A DNA stretch of 20,000 nucleotides from an uncultured virus (IMG/VR IMGVR_UViG_3300027848_000016) (taxonomy: Duplodnaviria; Heunggongvirae; Uroviricota; Caudoviricetes), in the IMG/VR virus record IMGVR_UViG_3300027848_000016; one strand, written 5' to 3'. The notes under the pieces are model-generated. The model saw nothing but the letters and a program-made list of their open reading frames with translations. It was not told the origin of the DNA and did no database searches. The translations under genes were made by a program, and so were the position numbers. Shown piece after piece: positions 1,467-17,517 of this stretch (its first letter is position 1; every line of letters begins with the position of its first letter).

Positions 1467-2642
1467 TTACTGGAATGATACGTTGCCGTTTGTGATAGCA
1501 ACTTTAGCTAGGTAGTCAGCAGCATTGCCTAAAGACGATGCTGTGTTGTTTAGCTCAACATATCCGTAACGTGTCATAAACGATACGACTGGTTCGAATG
1601 TTGCTGGGTCTAGTACAACACCTGAGCTCATTAGCGGGATGTATGGGCAATAGAATGCCGCTGCATCTGATTCGCTTGAACCTTTGTAACCGATTAGAAC
1701 TGCTGCGCTATCTGCTGAATATGTGTTAACATAAACTTTCATAGCATTATTCAATGTACCAACCATCTTAGTGTTAGTTGGAGATTCGAATGTTCCTTCA
1801 GTTGTACGTGCAAACGCTGAAGTAGTTGCAGATTGTAGGATTGTTAACGCGAATGGCGAAACAACGGCCCAGTTACCTGCGCCACGACGTGTGCGTTGAG
1901 CAATTTTGTTTGACTCGCGGTTAATTAAAACAGCAAGAGCAGCATGCTCGTCACCAACGAAAGTAGCAGTACCACTTACAGTTGCTTGGTCGTATGTTGA
2001 ACCAGCTGTACCAGCAAGCGAAACTAGCGAAGCTAGTACTTCTTGGTCAATCTCAGCAGTAATCTCTTGTGCAAGAGCTGCCATGATTTCTGCTTCAACA
2101 TCAATACCGTGCATTGACTGTGCGTCTTGTGCTGATTCAAAAGTCCAGCGAGCTGATAGCTTGCGTGATTTTGCTTCAACAGTTTGCTTCAAGATCTGGA
2201 TGCTTAGTTTATTACCAGCAGCACCTTCAAGAGCGGCAGTTGAAGCTGCTTTACCTGATGTTGTGTTGCCTGAATATGCTTCAGCAATCTTGAATGGGCT
2301 TAGTGCCTCTTCACCAGCTACTGCGCCACTTGCGCCTGTACCTGCCGTGTCGCTATAGCGAACACGTAGTGTGTGGATTTGTCCCACTGGGCCTGTCATA
2401 GGCTGAACACCAACTAGATCGTTAGCGATAACGGTTGGCATTACACGTCTAATAACGGGTAAAATAACACGGTTAAGTGTTGCGACATTGCCTGCAGATG
2501 TTGCACCAGCTGTAGCACTCTCTGAAAGATACCTACGGGTATTTTCCAAAGTAGTTGCCATTACAGCCTTCTTGGTACCTGTTAGGCCCTCAAGAAGTGC
2601 ATTTTTTGTATCTGACCAGCGGCTTTCTAGTAGTTCCGACAT
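1467..2642 (-). CDS. gp23: Major capsid protein, T4 gp23-like
   Basis: Motifs LPVIRRVMPTVIANDLVGVQPMTGPVGQI, KSRKLSARWTFESAQD, EITAEIDQE, FYCPYIPL and TRYG match the gp23 family; AGGAG RBS; follows the protease and scaffold genes. Confidence 0.97.
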   Translation of the reverse strand: MSELLESRWSDTKNALLEGLTGTKKAVMATTLENTRRYLSESATAGATSAGNVATLNRVILPVIRRVMPTVIANDLVGVQPMTGPVGQIHTLRVRYSDTAGTGASGAVAGEEALSPFKIAEAYSGNTTSGKAASTAALEGAAGNKLSIQILKQTVEAKSRKLSARWTFESAQDAQSMHGIDVEAEIMAALAQEITAEIDQEVLASLVSLAGTAGSTYDQATVSGTATFVGDEHAALAVLINRESNKIAQRTRRGAGNWAVVSPFALTILQSATTSAFARTTEGTFESPTNTKMVGTLNNAMKVYVNTYSADSAAVLIGYKGSSESDAAAFYCPYIPLMSSGVVLDPATFEPVVSFMTRYGYVELNNTASSLGNAADYLAKVAITNGNVSFQ

Positions 2643-6370: not shown

Positions 6371-6378
6371 TATTTATA
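6371..6378 (-). promoter_or_regulatory. Perfect T4 late promoter TATAAATA overlapping the portal stop codon
   Basis: TATAAATA-CAAT-ATG on the minus strand. Confidence 0.7.
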
Positions 6379-9300
6379 TCGTTTGTGCTGTTGCGCCTGG
6401 AGCAGCAGCTCCTGGTGCTGCGCCCGTTGCTGTGTCTGGAGGAGTTGCTTCTGCGCCTATTTCTGGTTCGCCGCCTTCTGGCGCAATATCTTCTGCACCA
6501 TCAATATCTGCACTAATACCTGCACTGCTAATACCTGCTGTACGCATTTCTGAACTTGCGTCTTCACCACCGGTATTGATAGTTTCGTCGTTTTCTTCTT
6601 TCCATAGACGCTCGTTTTCTGCAATCTCTTCTTCGCTCATACCTAAGAAGCGTTTCATAGCAAAGCGATTTGAAACATATGGTATAGCACTCATTTGTGT
6701 ATATGTTGGTACACGAGCATTATCAAGTTCTGCTTGACGATAGCTTGCAAAGTTTTGTGGTGTTTCAAACTCTAGATCAAACATTGCAGTATCAATGTTT
6801 ACGCCTTTTTCTAACAAGTAACGTTTAAACTCTTGATTAAATTCTTCTACAATTAAGCCTTGCAACCGTTCGCAGTAAGTATTAAAGCGTAGTTCTTGAA
6901 TGTATGCTGTTCCGACACGACCGTCATTATAACTGCTAGATGAATCATCTGCTCCAGTTGGTAAGTAAGAACTTGGAATACGCAATCCACGTACTAGCTT
7001 ATTGGTAAAATATCTAAGGTCATCAATTTCACCTAGGTTAGTACCACCCGGAAGTGTTTCAACTTTAGATCCGCGACCTTCTGCTGTCTGCGGAAAGAAG
7101 TAATCTTCATTTATTGAATTTTTAACAAAGATACCACTTTCAATAGCAAACGTGTGATAGTTGTGCCATTTTTCAGTGCCGTCTATAGTAATAGTTCCTG
7201 TATCTCGATTAGACACTACTTCTATTTTTACTACTTTGTGGTTAAACTGATCGATTTCTTTTACAAACTGTTTCCAGTTAGTGTATCCGTTTTTCTTAAG
7301 AAGTCCATTTAGTTTACTATAACCAAATCGCGTAAAGTCAATCTTACACTGAGCGTTCTTATAATCAAGAGCAACTGAATTTTCTTTCTTTAACAGATCT
7401 AATAACTCTTTGTTATTGTCACAAAGATTAATTACAGTGTTCTTATTTGTTGACTGAGTCTTAACTATCTCCACTACTATCTGTAACATTTCAAATGTCA
7501 AATGTAACGATTGATTTTTTATTTTAACTCTAGATTCCAAGTTTTTTACCACTTGTTGCATCGCAGCTAGATTACTATTAAGGTGGTCACTTCTAGATTT
7601 GCCAGCGTTCTTTTTATAACTGACCGTAGTCGCAGGATCATTCTGTCTCATCCACACTGCTCTCTGTTGTGCTGACCTAATATTGTAAAGAGCTGATTGT
7701 CTTTCTACAATAGTCATATTCTTCCAATGTGTTTTTAACGTATTAGAAATTTTTCCCGTAACTAACTGGAATTCTTCTTCTGATAAATTAGACCAGTAAT
7801 CTGATTTATTTGCAGCATGGTACTGTATGTGATCAGCTTTATTCATATATTGAAGATTACGTGGATCGTTATTAAAGCGATTATAATCTCGATGATGTAT
7901 TACTGCTTTAGACTTTCCTGCATTTTGTTCAAGGTATGTAAATTCCTGATGTTTGCTCAAGTTTCTAAAAAACTCGCCTACAACTCGATGAGTCCACTGC
8001 CATTCCTTCTTGCTATGATCCCAAACTTGCTCATAGTCATTAGATTTAGACGATATCTTTTTGTTTCTTTTATTAAAAGATATTAGACTATCAGTTTCGA
8101 CAATGTCCTTGGCCTCTACCATACCTTTTCCAAATACTGGTATCTTGTGGTCTGGAGTACAAACTAAAGTTTCGCCATTATCAAATGTTAATTGAATAGT
8201 TTGTGTATTTCTACGAGTAATACCAGCCCAGTTAATTACCCCTGGCGCTATTTTGCCAGTCACAGGATCACAACTGTATGCCCAGTTTTCTTTTCCTTGC
8301 TTAAACTCTGCAATTAACTCAGTTAGTGCTAATGTTCTTCCATCAAGTAGAGGAATCCTTGTAGATAAATCCAAACAGAGAGGATTATAGCTTGAGTCAA
8401 TAACATTAGTGCCACCGCCTGTGGCACTTGGAATACGTCTTTGATGAATCTCAGTTTTAACACGCTCAACAAACTGCATAGCAAGGTGACTTGGCATGTT
8501 GCCTACGTCCACATAAAATACTCGGCGTTCCGGAGCACGTTGTACACGATAGATAATAATAGCATCTTCGAGTAATTCTTTTTGTTTGAATACTTTAAAA
8601 ATAGTTTCTAATAAACTGTTTCCAAATGGGTAATTGTTGTCTAAGCCTTCACTTAAACTAAGATGCAACACATGTTCGGCATCAATTGCAACTTCACCGT
8701 TGGTAGTATTAAATCGTGATCCGTTTTGTGTAGGAGCATTACCTACCATACCTCGAACGCCACCAGTAGTATATCCTCCTCCGCCACCACCTGTGATATT
8801 ACCATTAGTGATAAACGGTGTTGTTGCAACCATCTCAGTAAAGTTTAAGTTTATGTCTTTAACAATGTATTGTTCAGGAACTTTACCTTCGCTTTCGTTA
8901 ACAATAATTCGTGTTAGTTTTGCGGGGTCAACATGATAAAGTTTTTTAGTTTCTGGATCTCTTAGAAATATTGCATCGCCGTATTTAAATATGTTACGGA
9001 ATGTTCTAAACATTCTAGTTTCAAATTGATTTAGTTTGCACCACTGTTTTAGGTACTGACCTAAAATATTAATTTCATTGTTGGTTGCACTTTTATTAAA
9101 TGCAAATTTAAAATTAGTACCGTTGGTTTTATTCTTTTGTGTGCAAAACTCAGCAAGGATATCTAGTGCAGCGTTAACTTCACTGTCCATATCCATAGTG
9201 TTGTATTGACCGTAACGTTCAACTCTGTTTGGACTACCAACATACACATCAGGAAGATATGAACTGTAGTTTGATTTTGCAGGTCCAGGACGTCCAGCAG

Positions 9301-9382
9301 AGTTAGCACCACTTATTGGGCTGTAACTTCCGTTTGGGTTATCCCCAGTTTGTACCGGAGTAAAATATTTTTTCCACGACAT
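6374..9382 (-). CDS. gp20: Portal vertex protein, T4 gp20-like, interrupted by an intein (spliced length 582 aa)
   Basis: gp20 motifs [66 protein letters not shown] and LRIPSSYL. Confidence 0.95.
   Translation of the reverse strand: [1002 protein letters not shown]
7118..8377 (-). mobile_element. Intein (420 aa) with HNH homing endonuclease domain, in the portal
   Basis: Block A [13 protein letters not shown] (Cys at residue 336), block B [9 protein letters not shown] (TxxH), C-terminal [16 protein letters not shown] followed by +1 Ser. Internal [10 protein letters not shown]...[20 protein letters not shown]...H is an HNH motif. Removal restores YNPL|[9 protein letters not shown]. Confidence 0.93.
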
Positions 9383-12455: not shown

Positions 12456-12649
12456 CACTAGCTAAAGATTTTGAAAATGATATCAAACAAATAAAAGACG
12501 ATGCTTATCGGCTTGGTTGGTATATGAGAGGAAGTTTTAGTTACGAAGATCTAATGTTTAGGATTTCTAATGAAGATAGAGAGATCCTAAACAGGATCAT
12601 CAAAGAAAACATTCAAGCTACAAATGATACTAGGATGCCGTTACTTTAG
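12410..12649 (+). CDS. gp51-like frame, probably expressed by -1 frameshift from the gp26-like ORF
   Basis: Not in the ORF track. The -1 frame reads FFRATLIPLEESQILALAKDFENDIKQIKDDAYRLGWYMRGSFSYEDLMFRISNEDREILNRIIKENIQATNDTRMPLL*. It starts at the slippery heptamer T TTT TTC (12410-12416) and has no ATG/GTG/TTG until 12524. Confidence 0.7.
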   Translation, partial: FFRATLIPLEESQILALAKDFENDIKQIKDDAYRLGWYMRGSFSYEDLMFRISNEDREILNRIIKENIQATNDTRMPLL

Positions 12650-13496
12650 CAGCTTTGAGCATAGCAAGTAATTTTGGATCGTTCATTACCATATCTTTTG
12701 AGGCAGCTTTAATTTGTGAAACAGATTCTTGTAATCTAAATTCAATAGCTTCGTCAATTGATTCAGTTGCACCATCACATTGCGGGAAACTTAGACTAGA
12801 TAATGTTTCCTTGCTCAACATGGTGTTTGCAATAAAATCACTAATTCCTTTAATAATTCCAGTATCTTTAGCAAGTTTACCTAATAGATATGATATAGCT
12901 ATACCACTTGCGCCGCCAATAATTGATAGGACCCAGCCAAAGCCAGGAACAACAGTAAAGAATCTTGTTAGCATTGCTAACGAAGCTGCGGTTGATGCGC
13001 CAACTGTTAAGAAACTAACTAAGCCGCCAGCAATATTATCAGTTATTATAAGTTGAGCAGCATTTAATTCCGGAGCATTAATATTACATTTGTTTGCTGC
13101 ATACACATTTGCATATGTGTCTAAGTCAGTCGATAGTTGTTCAAAAGAAATTAGTGCTCCTATTACTCTTCCTACCGGTGATGATAAAAATAAGTTATAC
13201 ATAGTTTTGCCAGGCGATTTAACTATTTGTTTAACTGCTTTTTTAACTTTGCTGACAGACTTAGGTGCCTCAGGCTGAGTAGTAACTGGTAGCGCCGGAG
13301 TATTACTTGGTTTAGGAGCAGCTACATTTGATTTTGCAGTTAAGTTTTTTGCTTTTGCATCTGCTTGTCCACGAATACGTTCTTTACCAACAACAGCACC
13401 AGTTGTAGGATCTATTATATTAAATACTCTATTCCGACCAGATCCTGCTCTGACTACTGCATAATCTACTTCTGCTAATATGTGATGTACTTTCAT
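12630..13496 (-). CDS. Hypothetical late protein with hydrophobic helical hairpin; possible internal/ejected head protein
   Basis: 288 aa, AAGGA RBS, late-promoter motif upstream, N-terminus MKVHHILAE, long Gly/Ala-rich hydrophobic segment. Confidence 0.6.
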   Translation of the reverse strand: MKVHHILAEVDYAVVRAGSGRNRVFNIIDPTTGAVVGKERIRGQADAKAKNLTAKSNVAAPKPSNTPALPVTTQPEAPKSVSKVKKAVKQIVKSPGKTMYNLFLSSPVGRVIGALISFEQLSTDLDTYANVYAANKCNINAPELNAAQLIITDNIAGGLVSFLTVGASTAASLAMLTRFFTVVPGFGWVLSIIGGASGIAISYLLGKLAKDTGIIKGISDFIANTMLSKETLSSLSFPQCDGATESIDEAIEFRLQESVSQIKAASKDMVMNDPKLLAMLKAAKVTAS

Positions 13497-13523
13497 TCTG
13501 AATAATCCTTAATGCTTGCAAGT

Positions 13524-13530
13524 TATTTAT
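13524..13530 (-). promoter_or_regulatory. Late promoter (ATAAATA)
   Basis: GATAAATA about 28 nt upstream of the 13496 ATG. Confidence 0.65.
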
Positions 13531-13553
13531 CTATGAAAGTGTTTAACTGTTAG

Positions 13554-14095
13554 TGTATGAGCAAGCTCATACAAGTTTTCGCTAACGCTCAAACTACTTA
13601 CACTTCGTTTTAATTAAATGATTTATATATGAACAAGCAATATTACGAATGTAATATTGTATTAATTTCATGTAGATCGTTTCAGTCAGACGGAACTATT
13701 TCTAGCTCCGTCGTCTTTAAGATAAACTTCATGTGAGTCTTATCCAGCAATGACATTGGAAGTAGGTAATTATTATACACAAGTTCATTGGGCTCTGACC
13801 TTTCCCAACCTACATCGACATCATGTAACATAAAGAGCGCATTAACTGTGTTAGTGCTACCTTTATAGTACATTACCTTCCGCTTCGTTCCTGTTGCTAA
13901 GAAGTTTTTATGAACTATGTTGTGTTTTTCGACTGACAGCAATCAATCTATATCAACCTGTGAGCCCAATTTGTTTGGTGGCTTCCGCACTCTGGTGCGT
14001 CGATCAATATGTTACGTGTCCGGATATCACCTCGGGCTTTACACAGCGGTATTATTAAACTGGCCCGCCAACCTTATGTGCTGTATTGATTTGCC
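13554..14095 (-). ncRNA. Putative large structured non-coding RNA (family not recognised)
   Basis: About 600-nt intergenic gap in a gene-dense genome with many hairpins (GAAA and CUUG tetraloops on the minus strand) and several long-range complementarities; see findings. Confidence 0.6.
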
Positions 14096-14521
14096 TTAGG
14101 AATTTTTTTTAAGATGTTCTTTGAGAATGGTTGATCCGCCAACTCTAACATTGATAATACCATTGTAGTATTCATCTGTTTCGAGTACTCTACGTTCAAA
14201 CTGTTCACGGGCCTCTAAGTAACTTGCTATGCCTCTGCTGGGACAAAAATGTAATATTTCACGTGTGAAATTTTCTGCGCCTAACTCTAAAACGTCTGCG
14301 TTAAGTCTATCACTGGAGCCATAATATTCTCTCCAATCACTTTCCTTGGTGCTACGTCTTTTATTCTTCTTGCCTTTAAGCGGGGGTTTAGTTACTTTAA
14401 ACTTTGCTAGTTTCTTGCCTACATACATCATGCTATTGGATAGATTTGTTATCAAGTATACAAATGCTTCACATCCTTCCGGAAGTTCGTCTAGTTGTTT
14501 ACCTTGATAAGTCCAATGCAT
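14096..14521 (-). CDS. Small stand-alone GIY-YIG family endonuclease (Seg-like catalytic domain), 141 aa
   Basis: FVYLITN...MYVGKK, YYGSS, catalytic-type E in SYLEAREQ and YYNGII. True start is probably ATG 14521 (MHWTYQG) rather than 14569, which overlaps the upstream gene. Confidence 0.8.
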   Translation of the reverse strand: MHWTYQGKQLDELPEGCEAFVYLITNLSNSMMYVGKKLAKFKVTKPPLKGKKNKRRSTKESDWREYYGSSDRLNADVLELGAENFTREILHFCPSRGIASYLEAREQFERRVLETDEYYNGIINVRVGGSTILKEHLKKNS

Positions 14522-14525
14522 AACA

Positions 14526-14532
14526 TACTTAT
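14526..14532 (-). promoter_or_regulatory. Late promoter variant (ATAAGTA) 4 nt before the GIY-YIG ATG
   Basis: ATAAGTA-TGTT-ATG, with the same spacing as at 6371-6378 and no SD sequence. Confidence 0.5.
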
Positions 14533-14741
14533 TTTGCCTTTTGCTTCTCAGCCGCCTTCTTGGCTGCATAAGCTATATGTATTTCTTCTTGCCTTAATTT
14601 TGCTAACCTTCTAATCTCACGCAACCATTTTCTACTTGCTAGATGTGTTCGATGAGACAAACGAGACTCAAAATTCTCGTTTGCCTTAAAGTACTCTAAG
14701 TAAGCCTTAGTTAACTGATCGTGTATGTCGTCGTTAATCAT
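14529..14741 (-). CDS. Small basic helical protein, possibly histone H1-like/Hc1-type DNA-binding
   Basis: 70 aa, coupled to gp46 by an ATGA overlap; ENFE...ASRKWLREIRRLAKLRQEEI resembles the Hc1-like pattern. Confidence 0.55.
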   Translation of the reverse strand: MINDDIHDQLTKAYLEYFKANENFESRLSHRTHLASRKWLREIRRLAKLRQEEIHIAYAAKKAAEKQKAK

Positions 14742-16510
14742 TCTACAATGTCAATATCGTTTTCGTAGCTTGTAAAGCCATTTTCTTTTACAACACGCAT
14801 AACATAACTTACTCTTCCAATTAATTCGTCTTTGTGTGAGATAAGAAATACATTCTTATCACCTTCACGGCCCATTTTCTTGAGAACGCTCAATGAACTT
14901 TCAACACCAGCAGTATCCATACCGCTATCAATCAGCTCATCAATAAACAACAAGTTGATCTTTTGATATAGGCTTTCCCAAACATCGCGGAATGCAAAGC
15001 TCATACCTAAGATAAGTCTGTTGCGTTCGCCACGACTCAAGTTATCAAAGTCTAGATCTTGTCCTAGTTGAGTAATTTCAACATTCAAATCATTCTGGAA
15101 CACAACTTGATGTGGCAATCCTAGCTTGTCGAGATAATATGTAAGCCTATTGTTCAAATACGCTAGGTTTTGATCAATAATCTTTTTACGAATGAAGCTG
15201 TCTTTATTTGTAAGTAGCTTTAGCAAGAACTCTTGATGCTCTTTGAATGTAGTAAGATCGTTTACAGGAGACCAATCAATTTCTTGCATAGCTGTTGACA
15301 ACAATTCATCAATCTGTGCTTGATAAGGATCGTTTTCATTTTGTTTTGTATCAAGCGACTGTTTCAAACTGTCAACGTTTTTACGATGCTCATATGCTTC
15401 TTTAGCACTTTCATAGAACGTATTAGGCTTTCCGTTGATATCACCAATGTCACTAAGATCTTTAAGCACAGCAGTTAGCTTTTTGCTAATTTCTAAATGA
15501 TAGGTGTCTGCATCCTGTAACTCTTTCATCTTTTTGTCAAGAATTTCTTGTTTCTTGTCTGCATGCAGCAGCTGATTACAAGTGTAACAGGTAGCATCTT
15601 CAAGATTTAAGATGTCTTTTTCAACCTTTTCAACACTAGCTTTAGCACGTAGCTGTGCTGTCTCTAATGTGCTTTTCTCCTTATTAAGAGCCAAAATAGC
15701 AGTGTTATGTTGCGTCCAGTTAGACAATTTTTCATGTGCTTCTAGTTCAGCATCGATGTCTACGTGCTCTAGTTCTGTAATACCATGCTGTAATTTAGCA
15801 CAGTCTTGCTCCTTTTTAGCAAGCCAAGCACGTTGAGTACGACCTAAGCTATCAATAGTAGTTTGTATTTTTTCGTTTGCACCTTGAATAGCATTAATTT
15901 TTAGTGTTTCGTTTGTAATAGCATCTTTAGTTTGACGAGTTTGTTCTTTAAGAGCTTCGGCCTTTTCACTAAGGATAGTAATACCCAGCAACTGCTCAAT
16001 GATAGCACGTTGATCATTAACACGCATGCTTAAGAAAGGCTCAGTGTAGGTGTTAAGTGCAACAATGTGCTTAAACATGTCATGCGACATATCTAACAAG
16101 TCGTTAATATACTCTTGAGTCTTTCGACTGTCGCCTTGTGACTCATCTGTCATCTCTTGTTCTTGCTCGTCGACAAAGAACTTGAGTACATTAGGTGATC
16201 TACCACGCTCGACACGATAATCAACACCGTTCTTTTCAAAATGCAGTGTAACTAACATGCCCTTTGAGTTTGTCTTGTTGATTAGATTGTTACGTTTAAT
16301 ATTAGTGAGTGCTTGTCCGTATAATGCATATGATAATGCATTGATAATAGTAGTTTTACCTGTACCATTACGACTTCCACTATCATCTCCGCCTTGATCT
16401 AAGTTTTCACCTAGCACAAGTGTTAATTGCTCGCGATTAAAGTTTACAGCTTGGGTCTGATTGCCCACGCTCATAAAATTCTTCACAGTCAAATCCTTAA
16501 TTTTTATCAT
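14738..16510 (-). CDS. gp46: Recombination endonuclease ATPase subunit (SbcC/Rad50), T4 gp46-like
   Basis: KNFMSVGN, Walker A NGTGKTT, zinc hook CYTC, signature LSRGE, Walker B LLFIDE and H-loop ISHK. Confidence 0.95.
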   Translation of the reverse strand: MIKIKDLTVKNFMSVGNQTQAVNFNREQLTLVLGENLDQGGDDSGSRNGTGKTTIINALSYALYGQALTNIKRNNLINKTNSKGMLVTLHFEKNGVDYRVERGRSPNVLKFFVDEQEQEMTDESQGDSRKTQEYINDLLDMSHDMFKHIVALNTYTEPFLSMRVNDQRAIIEQLLGITILSEKAEALKEQTRQTKDAITNETLKINAIQGANEKIQTTIDSLGRTQRAWLAKKEQDCAKLQHGITELEHVDIDAELEAHEKLSNWTQHNTAILALNKEKSTLETAQLRAKASVEKVEKDILNLEDATCYTCNQLLHADKKQEILDKKMKELQDADTYHLEISKKLTAVLKDLSDIGDINGKPNTFYESAKEAYEHRKNVDSLKQSLDTKQNENDPYQAQIDELLSTAMQEIDWSPVNDLTTFKEHQEFLLKLLTNKDSFIRKKIIDQNLAYLNNRLTYYLDKLGLPHQVVFQNDLNVEITQLGQDLDFDNLSRGERNRLILGMSFAFRDVWESLYQKINLLFIDELIDSGMDTAGVESSLSVLKKMGREGDKNVFLISHKDELIGRVSYVMRVVKENGFTSYENDIDIVE

Positions 16511-17517
16511 AATTCGCTATAAATGTCCATAAGTGTTTTTTTGTTGAAGTTATCTGAGTCAATTGCAGCGATTTCGCCAGCAACAATTTGATCTACACTT
16601 TCAAACTGTGCAATGTCTAATTGAGTACTAATATCTTCTAGTGACTTTTGTGGAATCAAACTAATTTCACGACAGTTGTATTGAGTAATGAATGTTTCCT
16701 TAATGAAACTTGCTTCTTCATAGCTGATAGGCAAGTCCAAGTTGACACGCAAGTACATATTGGGCTTAATAAACGTAGTTTGCTCGTCAATAAGTTTGCT
16801 AAGTTTAACTGTACGATACTTTGGACACTCTGGCCAGTTAATGTACTGTGGTTCCTTATCGTTTTCACGATCGAGTACCATCATACCACGGTCATCGTCC
16901 CATGTATCAGCATAGTTGTGCGGAAATGCATTACCAATGTAATGCACTGCACCTTGTTGTTGACGTTTGTGGAAGTGTCCGCTAAAAACATACTTTTGAT
17001 TAACAAAATCTTCTGCACGTAGCTCACCATGATCGGGCATTTGTACCATTGCGTTCATAAAAAACGTAGGAAGTTCAAAGTGACCAAATATATACTTGCT
17101 TTTTAGATGTTTTAGCTTTTTCCACTCGTCGCCTACTAGCCAAGGAACAATAGTTACATCGTCTATGGTGGTAATTTCGTCAACAAATGTAATACCTGGA
17201 ATGTGTTTAGCAAACGCAGTTGAATTAACAGTGCGCTTGTCTTTGTAATACAGGTCATGATTACCATCAAAGAAGAAAAACTGCTCAAAAGCAGCACCTA
17301 GCTTCTCCATACTACGGATAGTTGCATCCATAGTAGTAAGATTTAATGAATTTCGATTGTGATGCCAGTCGCCGCAAAAGATACCAGTTTCACAACCGTT
17401 GGCTTTTGCAGTTTTGATGAACCAATCAACAAAATCTTCACAATCTTGATTGTGAATCTTTGAATTACCCTTTAATCCAAAGTGTATGTCTGTAAAGACT
17501 GCTGCTTTTTTAAACAA
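16507..17517 (-). CDS. gp47: Recombination endonuclease nuclease subunit (SbcD/Mre11), T4 gp47-like
   Basis: Metallophosphoesterase motifs TDIHFG, GDWHH, GNHD, GHFE and SGHFH; TTG start after GGAG. Confidence 0.95.
   Translation of the reverse strand: MFKKAAVFTDIHFGLKGNSKIHNQDCEDFVDWFIKTAKANGCETGIFCGDWHHNRNSLNLTTMDATIRSMEKLGAAFEQFFFFDGNHDLYYKDKRTVNSTAFAKHIPGITFVDEITTIDDVTIVPWLVGDEWKKLKHLKSKYIFGHFELPTFFMNAMVQMPDHGELRAEDFVNQKYVFSGHFHKRQQQGAVHYIGNAFPHNYADTWDDDRGMMVLDRENDKEPQYINWPECPKYRTVKLSKLIDEQTTFIKPNMYLRVNLDLPISYEEASFIKETFITQYNCREISLIPQKSLEDISTQLDIAQFESVDQIVAGEIAAIDSDNFNKKTLMDIYSEL

Follow-up and report, generated by a model that had tools for sequence, protein, structure and literature searches.

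What is the long gap behind a small phage nuclease gene, and does the nuclease have any use for it? The question is raised by a 20,000-nt stretch of DNA from an uncultured T4-like phage (IMG/VR IMGVR_UViG_3300027848_000016; hereafter the window), in which a SegE-type GIY-YIG gene on the minus strand is followed by 599 bases before the next gene. The earlier note on this DNA described a large pseudoknotted noncoding RNA on the minus strand, directly after a GIY-YIG gene that encodes the catalytic domain only, and this description is borne out by covariation and by the protein profiles PF19835 and TIGR01453. On comparative evidence, 13667-14088 of the minus strand is a genuine structured RNA gene. 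The RNA is about 420-430 nt long and belongs to a new family, here named class I, in which the window copy is type 1. This family is found in uncultured T4-like phages sampled from fresh water, salt lakes, and the sea. The RNA-nuclease pairing poses the question of whether the two cooperate or whether conserved RNA genes are landing sites for homing nucleases. We lean toward an autonomous folded phage RNA, either a ribozyme or a ribonucleoprotein core, that has a mobile GIY-YIG nuclease as its habitual neighbor, and we rate this reading somewhat better than even.

The earlier note started from dense complementarity downstream of the nuclease stop codon at 14096. The gap down to 13496 is there and comparative covariation supports the complementarity, but the folding energy is not significant. 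Single-sequence folding of the minus strand gave a minimum free energy z score of -1.56 (7 of 100 shuffles were as good), and the plus strand gave -1.15. A related contig (L007) has the same gene order and 91% identity across the gap, and whole helix blocks are swapped yet still complementary. The window pairing ACACAA(CAUA)GUUCAU...AUGAACUUGUGU corresponds to ACUGC(ACAU)UACACA...UGUGUAGCAGU in L007, a compensating block swap. A pattern taken from the conserved 3' part of the RNA retrieved 50 IMG/VR stretches. With loci added later, the 3' half was examined in 47 distinct sequences from 79 loci and the 5' half in 32 distinct sequences from 61 loci. Pairing was compared to a control in which the partners were slid by one to three columns, and covariation was compared to 500 shuffles. 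In the 3' half, 29 pairs in five helices were 97.4% paired compared to 35-51% when slid, and 11 pairs (115 cells) had changed on both sides. The covariation score was 0.298 compared to 0.165 for the shuffled alignments, and 0/500 shuffles reached it. The 35 pairs in seven helices of the 5' half were 97.1% paired (30-47% when slid), 15 pairs (131 cells) had changed on both sides, and the score of 0.368 compared to 0.162 was again reached by 0/500 shuffles. Both halves together comprise 64 tested base pairs that are 97% paired, 26 of them changed on both sides. The fold has at least eleven helices, two covarying pseudoknots, and one GNRA hairpin. The RNA is single-copy in each long contig (5/5 contigs).

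The RNA is assigned to the minus strand, as the earlier note had proposed, because its abundant G-U pairs would read A-C on the other strand. G-U pairs are present in 28, 20, and 18 of the 47 sequences in the GNRA hairpin (h14) and in 30, 31, and 24 of the 32 sequences in helix h5. Among 32 distinct RNAs, the longest sense open reading frame (ORF) can be as short as 16 aa or as long as 86 aa and moves from place to place; the nearest diverged relative has one of 24 aa. The window's own 86-aa ORF (13682-13942) was rejected as a gene because the longest ORF varies in size and place and this one is not conserved among relatives.

The nuclease and the RNA are separable. The 3' end of a nuclease gene lies directly upstream of the RNA in 29 of 35 distinct extended class I loci. 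The other six RNA loci have no nuclease and lie in unrelated contexts: between virion genes and an endolysin gene, before a head protease gene, or near NifU-like and methyltransferase genes. In G004, a 299,910-bp contig with a CheckV completeness of 86%, nuclease and RNA are 181 kb apart. The G004 nuclease (56% identical) comes after gp46 and abuts a 329-aa ORF, and the RNA is a single copy between virion genes and the endolysin gene. Separation is also seen from the side of the nuclease. Four loci (L066, L070, L082, and L086) have a nuclease that is 79-87% identical but neither gp46 nor the RNA, and a coding gene of about 130 aa lies directly downstream. In the complete genome of the cultured Methylophilales phage Melnitz-1, a nuclease gene whose product is 74% identical has other surroundings, with 148 bases and then genes for small proteins behind it. 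None of five nhmmer profiles built from the RNA types matched the Melnitz-1 genome significantly. Nuclease identity does not track RNA class. The earlier note had proposed that the RNA is a cofactor, a guide, or a processed primer for the nuclease, and it had named independent occurrence as the observation that would count against this. Independent occurrence is what the six RNA loci, G004, the four nuclease loci, and Melnitz-1 exhibit, and the proposal is not supported.

The nuclease matches PF19835 (SegE_GIY-YIG) with E 2.3e-32 and 112 bits compared to a cut-off of 25. The match covers residues 19-139 in the 157-aa frame and the full profile (1-123). There is also a match to phrog_7363 ('homing endonuclease', E 2.1e-13). 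The NCBIfam model TIGR01453 ('group I intron endonuclease') matches below its cut-off (E 7.4e-5) at profile positions 2-86 of 215. Because this model aligns over just the first 86 of its 215 positions, the nuclease is by this measure a catalytic domain only, without the usual C-terminal DNA-binding half. Homologs are 135-172 aa long, with one of 193 aa, and no sequence in the PDB matched the nuclease meaningfully. The family comprises more than 600 related stretches in IMG/VR, and the nuclease loci studied here are the best 80 protein matches among them. Identity to the window nuclease is 74-97% in these loci compared to 48-94% for the adjacent gp46, with no correlation in either direction. 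Examples of gp46/nuclease identity are 48/82 (L071), 51/80, 94/76 (L123), and 88/74. The nuclease thus behaves, on these comparisons, as a mobile gene would. The decoupling fits a free-standing homing-type gene located between a conserved gene and a variable region. In L068 the gp46 identity is 55%, the nuclease identity is 84%, and the RNA scores 363 bits compared to 417 for the best match, values that would fit co-conversion of the neighboring RNA along with the nuclease.

The features of the RNA and its surroundings are collected in Table 1. Conservation starts about 10 nt past the GIY-YIG stop, and it does so likewise in loci without the nuclease. The 3' limit of the RNA is the last invariant alignment block. 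The 5' tail forms a pseudoknot with the loop of h6 (PK-A). Its 6 pairs are 100% paired in 32 sequences and 3 have changed on both sides, with the variants CG 20 / AU 11 / GC 1 and AU 21 / GC 11. Hairpin h1 is compatible with the alignment and not proven by it, as 4 of its 5 pairs never vary. The middle pair of h2 is UA in 20 sequences and AU in 12, and 3/3 tested pairs of the enclosed h3 have changed on both sides. Helix h5 has 8 pairs that are 95.7% paired, 3 of them changed on both sides. The 5 pairs of h6 are 99.4% paired with 2 changed on both sides. An A-rich joiner connects the 5' strand of h7 to h8, which has 5 pairs (96.6% paired, 4 changed on both sides) and a GGAACGA sequence in its loop that is invariant in 47 sequences. 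By eye, the span of h9 ranges from a short GC-GAAA-GC type to roughly 75 nt across the 47 sequences. The alignment held no covarying partner for the joining strand AUGUCGAU.

Helix h7 crosses h11 and so forms the second pseudoknot. All 5/5 tested pairs of h7 have changed on both sides, and there are 28 distinct cognate strand combinations. Cognate h7 duplexes have a mean energy of -10.85 kcal/mol compared to -5.87 kcal/mol for 1992 non-cognate combinations. The 6 pairs of h11 are 99.3% paired, and one of them is UA 42 / CG 3 / GC 2. Hairpin h14 has 9 pairs that are 99.5% paired in 47 sequences, a top pair that is CG 42 / UA 5, and loops of the GAAA, GUGA, and GUAA type. Pairings in the M1 sub-domain have the variants GUCUA/UAGAC, UCUUGG/UCAAGA, and UCUCGG/UUGAGA by eye, and the column counts for these pairings (h13, h13a, h13b) are poor owing to alignment gaps.

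Five of these helices had been picked out in the earlier note from the window alone: the GNRA hairpin, h7 (whose 5' strand reads ATGAAC(tatg)TTGTGT on the plus strand), h11 (GTAGGT/ACCTAC), h4 (CGCAC/GTGCG), and a long hairpin at about 13823-13873, which is the variable h9. Two long-range pairings from the same source were lost on comparison. The pairing ATTGGGCTC/GAGCCCAAT is complete in 6/29 type 1 RNAs; in 5 of them the 5' partner has been deleted, and changes go uncompensated. The TCAGTC/GACTGA pairing also keeps all pairs in 6/29, and its strand covaries instead with the local partner in h6, where pairing is kept in 28/29. Pseudoknots are present as the earlier note had said, but they are those formed by h7 with h11 and by the 5' tail with the h6 loop, not the ones it had deduced. 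Other candidate pairings came from RNAalifold or from invariant complementarity. The pairings of GUUGAUAU with AUGUCGAC, of UGAUCG with CGAUC near the 3' end, and of GUAGGUUG with CGAUCUAC were dropped because one strand is invariant or a rival helix covaries. UCGAC with GUCGA as a further pseudoknot was rejected, with one-sided changes only (by eye). A candidate pairing between the complementary loop GGUCAGA and tail UCUGACU was likewise not adopted.

Table 1. Positions of the class I RNA, its parts, and the neighboring genes in the window.
Feature	Position	Strand	Description
Major capsid protein Gp23	1467-2642		Pfam, E 3e-98
T4-type portal	6374-9382	minus	Pfam, E 7e-99
Unrelated gene	12630-13496	minus	288 aa
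Second small motif	13555-13595	minus	stem AGUUU/AAACU, loop GAGCGUUAGCGA, then hairpin GUAUGAGC-UU-GCUCAUAC
Post-RNA hairpin AAUAUUAC-AUUC-GUAAUAUU	13639-13658	minus	exactly 7 nt past the last invariant block of the RNA
Class I type 1 RNA	13667-14088	minus	conserved core from about AAUACAGCAC to CUACAUGAA; boundaries approximate
M2 ACAUGAA	13667-13673	minus	3' side of the GNRA hairpin
3' tail UGACUGAAACGAUCUACAUGAA	13667-13688	minus	nearly invariant; holds M2
Hairpin h14 GACGGAGCUA-GAAA-UAGUUCCGUC	13689-13712	minus	GNRA-type loop
M1 sub-domain	13713-13761	minus	GUC..GAC and CC..GG pairings likely
M1 ACAUGAA	13728-13734	minus	5' side of the GNRA hairpin
Helix h11 GUAGGU/ACCUAC	13762-13813 (13813-13808 with 13767-13762)	minus	covariation
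h7 3' strand	13777-13788	minus	enclosed by h11
Hairpin h12, loop GAAAGGUCAGAG	13789-13807	minus	inside h11; 94.1% paired
Joining strand AUGUCGAU	13814-13821	minus	nearly invariant in 47 sequences
h9, variable-length hairpin	13822-13876	minus	seen by eye in the 47-sequence alignment
Hairpin h8 CUUCU/GGAAG	13877-13904	minus	conserved loop UAGCAAYAGGAACGAAGC
h7 5' strand ACACAA-CAUA-GUUCAU	13910-13925	minus	long-range pairing with 13777-13788
Hairpin h6 GAUUG/CAGUC	13931-13948	minus	loop UUGCUGU is the PK-A 3' strand
Helix h5 AUAUUGAU/GUUGAUAU	13950-14010 (14010-14003 with 13957-13950)	minus	covariation
Optional insert	13958-13985	minus	inside h5; missing in 6/32 sequences
Hairpin h4	13986-13999	minus	inside h5; 3/5 pairs changed on both sides
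Helix h2 GUG/CAC around variable hairpin h3	14016-14044	minus	covariation
Hairpin h1 GGCGG/CCGCU	14045-14069	minus	5 pairs, 100% paired
PK-A 5' strand ACAGCA	14079-14084	minus	pairs with h6 loop 13936-13941
SegE-type GIY-YIG gene	14096-14521 (upstream ATG 14569)	minus	141 aa, or 157 aa
70-aa ORF	14529-14741	minus	between gp46 and the nuclease gene
SMC/AAA_23 protein	14738-16510		590 aa; Pfam
Metallophosphoesterase	16507-17517		Pfam

Two copies of a motif of 7-12 nt, M1 and M2, flank the GNRA hairpin about 50-70 nt apart. M1 equals M2 within each RNA in all classes examined, and these include other ORF-free stretches that follow close homologs of the nuclease. There are 34 such stretches: 13 of type C, 11 plus 1 of type D, 5 of type E, and 4 of a further group. 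Types C, D, and E are tied to class I only by their position, shared short motifs, and the twin-motif pattern. ACAUGAA is invariant at M1 and M2 across 47 distinct class I RNAs. The twin motif is UACAUGAU or AGAUAAUG in type D and UGCCAAG or UGUCAAG in type E. Type C has six forms, and 11/11 sequences agree at the variable positions bar one fixed G/A difference. As these alignments read, the covariation of M1 and M2 is parallel, not complementary, and ordinary base-pairing does not explain the pattern. No common internal complement of M1 and M2 was found within the RNAs, and an M1-M2 duplex is only slightly favored (cognate -5.6 compared to non-cognate -4.1 kcal/mol). Translation of a small peptide from the AUG of M1 or M2 would meet an early stop in some relatives (by eye). 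Loci showing twin motifs are L090, L092, L093, L095, L104, L105, L110, L111, L113, L122, L125, and L126. The core of the motif, in many cases N-UG-A-U, is reminiscent of a start codon or of a C box. The type C leaders, the first ~100 nt past the nuclease stop, contain two to five repeats by eye of words like AAGGCACACA and CACAUGGCA (L088, L090, L096, L102, L104, L110, L111, L113, L120, and L125). These repeats could be iterons or protein-binding sites.

A hairpin follows the RNA, and 25/32 distinct tails fold there at -4 kcal/mol or lower. It mostly has a 9-bp stem in the same place, formed by differing but mutually complementary sequences, and UNCG-like loops. This hairpin is likely a 3' end or terminator element. 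The second small motif farther downstream is present in 69/77 loci, with the stems AGUUU/AAACU, GUGUA/UACAC, and GUGUU/AACAC. It resembles a terminator-promoter cassette.

The minus strand has no terminator-like site between the nuclease and the RNA in the window, in agreement with the earlier note, and a promoter and terminator scan of the window gave counts at or near chance. The pattern TTGAC[AT]-N16-18-TANNNT is found just past the nuclease stop in 12/76 loci, a count made without a chance control. Together these data suggest read-through transcription in the window and a separate promoter in some relatives. Sigma-70-like sites were noted in L006, L023, L061-L063, L071, L083-L085, L092, L103, L105, L118, and L124; in L006 and L023 the site comes with an insert of about 100 nt. 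In 4 metatranscriptome runs (3 studies), assembled contigs map to the RNA and to the nuclease gene toward its 3' end; a 268-nt contig among them spans the nuclease-RNA junction (13972-14239). Parts of the window, 12600-13295 among them, were left uncovered in the four runs, a gap that carries no weight as evidence. These contigs establish presence in RNA libraries; their strand and ends are not given, and they do not prove transcription.

By all searches made, the class I RNA belongs to no described family. The Rfam check suggested in the earlier note was run with all 4227 families on the whole window and gave 0 matches at gathering score. At E up to 10, the region 13300-14300 gave only two chance-level snoRNA matches, and nine related loci screened at E up to 1 yielded no relevant match either. 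The models for group I and group II introns, HEARO, GOLLD, and ROOL had no match in the window or the nine loci. ARAGORN found 0 tRNA or tmRNA genes in the window. The window locus and the type C and type D RNAs were compared by blastn to 50,697 phage records. There was no RNA match, and the nuclease gene alone was matched in four Melnitz records. Full-text literature searches found no description of the class I RNA. Term look-ups in the main text of a study of more than 10,000 viral candidate RNAs gave none either, and its supplementary tables could list class I (PMC10690425).

Intron features were sought individually. There is no interrupted gene: the RNA is preceded either by virion genes or by a nuclease ORF that is intact and ends in a stop of its own, and the downstream genes vary among relatives (288 aa, 372 aa, endolysin, head protease). 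The core of a group I intron has the topology P3-[P4-P6]-P7-P3'-P8-P7'. In the h7-h11 pseudoknot, two hairpins lie between the 5' strands, h12 lies between the 5' strand of h11 and the 3' strand of h7, and no hairpin lies between the 3' strands of h7 and h11. This helix order is unlike the group I core. Skips in the assembled RNA-library contigs fit h9 length variants or low-similarity relatives, and no clean joined form was seen. For group II, Pfam scans of 21 window ORFs detected no reverse transcriptase and Rfam had no match. For HEARO/omega-RNA, the neighbor is a GIY-YIG protein and not IscB or TnpB.

In the reading that we prefer, the RNA would act alone in trans through its fold, whether as a ribozyme or as a scaffold that binds a protein or nucleic-acid partner. 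The transcript would arise by read-through from the nuclease gene or, in some relatives, start at a sigma-70-like promoter of the RNA itself, and the conserved hairpin would bound it on the 3' side. The identical, exposed M1 and M2 (ACAUGAA here) may be twin recognition sites for one partner. The SegE-type protein would be a free-standing homing-type mobile nuclease that settled at the gp46/RNA boundary and is often co-inherited, and it would not be the enzyme partner of the RNA. Large RNAs held together by many covarying helices and pseudoknots are rare, and nearly all that are understood to date are ribozymes or ribonucleoprotein cores.

Several observations weigh against an autonomous RNA with a mobile neighbor. 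Among the 80 close nuclease homologs, 71 precede either a class I RNA (37, detected by nhmmer) or another long noncoding stretch (34), four have a coding gene right after the nuclease stop, and five cannot be judged. The linkage to the nuclease is far tighter than for an arbitrary neighbor. Types C and D also covary, with changes on both sides in 47/104 and 36/142 predicted pairs, respectively; the type E sequences vary too little for a verdict. G004 still carries both genes, and action in trans is possible. Neither a ribozyme signature nor a partner was found for the RNA. Promoter-like sites between nuclease and RNA are not above chance (4 found, 5.1 expected), and the RNA libraries may contain carried-over DNA. 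The loci were picked by nuclease similarity, which truncates the identity range by imposing its lower bound and weakens the argument from decoupling; the cases of near-identical gp46 with a diverged nuclease are free of this sampling bias. A nuclease-free gp46-RNA allele, the expected target of homing, was not seen among the RNA loci.

The same linkage could mean that the RNA is a cofactor or specificity module for a single-domain GIY-YIG protein that lacks a DNA-binding domain. In a variant of this idea, the nuclease would recognize and cut the element at M1/M2 beside the hairpins, as RNA or single-stranded DNA, in the manner of Ssn. We regard such a nuclease-RNA system as unlikely, although it would account for a protein that is a catalytic domain only, for its position directly upstream in 29/35 RNA loci with no terminator between, and for the 71/80 homologs that precede RNAs or noncoding stretches of at least four sequence-unrelated types. 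The lineage-specific identity of M1 and M2 (11/11 in type C, with 6 forms) also agrees with it. So does the Ssn precedent, in which 71% of ssnA homologs are reported to have their hairpin motif nearby (PMC11893778). Against it stand the independent occurrence in both directions, a nuclease identity that does not track RNA class, and a hairpin after the RNA with no variable guide-like tail. M1 and M2 are moreover invariant in 47 class I RNAs while the nuclease varies over 74-97%, which makes a programmable guide unlikely. A ribonucleoprotein nuclease in the stricter sense would have the RNA supply recognition, with M1/M2 setting or mirroring the target, as a GIY-YIG counterpart of IscB/TnpB and its omega-RNA acting in cis or trans. 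This analogy is very improbable, yet it stays alive because the near-complete genome with unlinked genes still has both. That the RNA is a self-splicing intron, or another kind of mobile ribozyme tied to the GIY-YIG gene as in T4 td/I-TevI, is close to refuted. The idea is brought to mind by a GIY-YIG gene next to an RNA that is about 400 nt long and has GNRA loops and a pseudoknot, and by the weak match to the NCBIfam intron endonuclease model (E 7.4e-5, below cut-off). It is opposed by the absence of an Rfam match (group I and II included) and of a split gene and by a helix order that differs from the group I core; a clean joined form was also not seen among the assembled RNA-library contigs.

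Two further explanations place the function in cis. A replication or recombination element could be a folded pre-primer that forms an R-loop at a phage origin, like ColE1 RNA II, with the hairpins downstream of the RNA as loading sites. The single copy per long contig (5/5), the recombination genes gp46/gp47 adjoining most loci, and the conserved hairpins and small motif after the RNA would agree with an origin, as would the repeated GGCAC-like words in the leaders of other RNA types (by eye) and the twin identical motifs if these are read as iterons. We nevertheless consider an origin distinctly unlikely: dense covariation, pseudoknots, and the GNRA hairpin point to a definite fold in three dimensions rather than to a mere hybrid-forming primer, the map positions are unrelated in different phages, the composition profile has no skew inflection at the locus beyond the effect of gene orientation, and neither an initiator gene nor an AT-rich unwinding element was identified. 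Just as doubtful is a cis-regulatory or boundary element, that is, a 3' untranslated region (UTR) of the nuclease gene or a 5' leader of the next gene that controls stability, termination, or translation, perhaps within a terminator-promoter cassette that borders a variable region of the genome. This would explain why no terminator separates the nuclease from the RNA and why one RNA-library contig spans the junction. It also suits the sequence after the RNA, where the hairpin and small motif are followed by a late-promoter-like ATAAATA and the ribosome-binding site of a varying gene. What counts against regulation of a neighbor is that the neighbors change on both sides while the RNA stays, that some relatives have a sigma-70-like promoter between nuclease and RNA, and that a conserved hairpin stands between the RNA and the next gene. 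About 430 nt with pseudoknots also far exceeds the known phage UTR elements.

The source of the window is a T4-like myophage, as indicated by Pfam matches to structural genes, which include a prohead protease and a baseplate protein in addition to those listed in Table 1. The portal gene product is 1002 aa long, and weak Intein_splicing and HNH_3 matches, below the Pfam cut-offs, lie inside the Portal_T4 match. The gp20 portal gene probably contains an intein with a homing endonuclease, as these profile matches suggest. We take the SMC/AAA_23 protein and the metallophosphoesterase to be the gp46/gp47 recombination nuclease pair. On the minus strand, gp46 is followed by the 70-aa ORF, the GIY-YIG gene, the gap, and the 288-aa gene, whose product had no tblastn match in phage records. 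The 70-aa ORF and the nuclease in its 157-aa reading share 41 bases. This ORF is kept in many relatives at 43-97% identity and is absent in types C and E, and it had no family match in Pfam, PHROG, and NCBIfam-level profile scans. The contigs G003-G007 (of L038, L028, L051, L048, and L036) are 115-300 kb long with CheckV completeness of 32-86%. These values imply genomes of roughly 350 kb, so the gp23-bearing phages may be jumbo-sized. A 560-contig bin (G001) contains the phage contig of the window and one more phage contig (C274/L010 and C300/L009), whose RNA is of type 2, with the same 3' domain and another 5' half. This bin is phage DNA binned together with a bacterial genome. The exact stretch is present in DNA runs of freshwater and salt-lake metagenomes, from which it may originate, and relatives are present in metatranscriptome runs.

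Among known systems, the free-standing Seg-type GIY-YIG homing endonucleases of T4 include SegE, and SegB lies within a tRNA gene cluster. The window nuclease shares the SegE Pfam family and an intergenic place beside a conserved structured-RNA gene. It differs from the T4 Seg enzymes in lacking the C-terminal DNA-binding half, and no nuclease-free target allele was found among the RNA loci. Its decoupling from gp46 fits the description of nuclease genes at boundaries of genetic exchange in PMC10448857. The window protein is also like the Ssn enzymes, which PMC11893778 describes as single-domain GIY-YIG single-strand DNA nucleases with flanking hairpin motifs, in being a very small GIY-YIG protein whose gene is habitually beside a structured nucleic-acid element. 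In that description the Ssn motifs are short repeated 28-nt DNA hairpins with many copies per genome on both gene flanks, whereas here there is one 430-nt covarying fold per genome. The best match of the window protein is the SegE family (PF19835).

The td group I intron of T4 carries the GIY-YIG gene I-TevI. The likeness to class I is that a T4-like phage pairs a GIY-YIG gene with an RNA of ~400 nt that has GNRA loops and a core pseudoknot. Unlike td, the class I locus has no exons, no Rfam match, and another helix order, and the nuclease gene is outside and upstream of the RNA, not in a loop. IscB/TnpB with omega-RNA (HEARO), the analogy drawn in the earlier note, also joins a nuclease gene to a large structured RNA. 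In contrast to these systems, the class I RNA does not match HEARO, its neighbor has another nuclease fold, RNA and nuclease each occur alone, and class I has no variable guide segment and invariant twin motifs. The ColE1 RNA II pre-primer resembles class I as a folded transcript of several hundred nucleotides with possible action at its own locus and hairpins downstream. Class I is far more constrained by covariation and pseudoknots than RNA II, and its map position varies between phages.

The large RNAs GOLLD, ROOL, and OLE are orphans and open problems, and GOLLD and ROOL are linked to tRNA genes. Like class I, GOLLD and ROOL are large, elaborate noncoding RNAs of phages and prophages that came from comparative genomics of metagenomes and have no known function; they have been the subject of cryo-EM work (bioRxiv 10.1101/2024.12.08.627333). 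Class I matches them in neither sequence nor structure and, at about 430 nt, is smaller. The phages that carry it are T4-like and lytic, and its link is to a GIY-YIG gene, compared to the link of GOLLD and ROOL to tRNA genes. Several sequence-unrelated sister types occupy the same genomic place. Class I is a further large-RNA class, carried by uncultured T4-like phages that are abundant in lakes, in salt lakes, and at sea, and its compact, well-defined fold is open to direct synthesis and probing.

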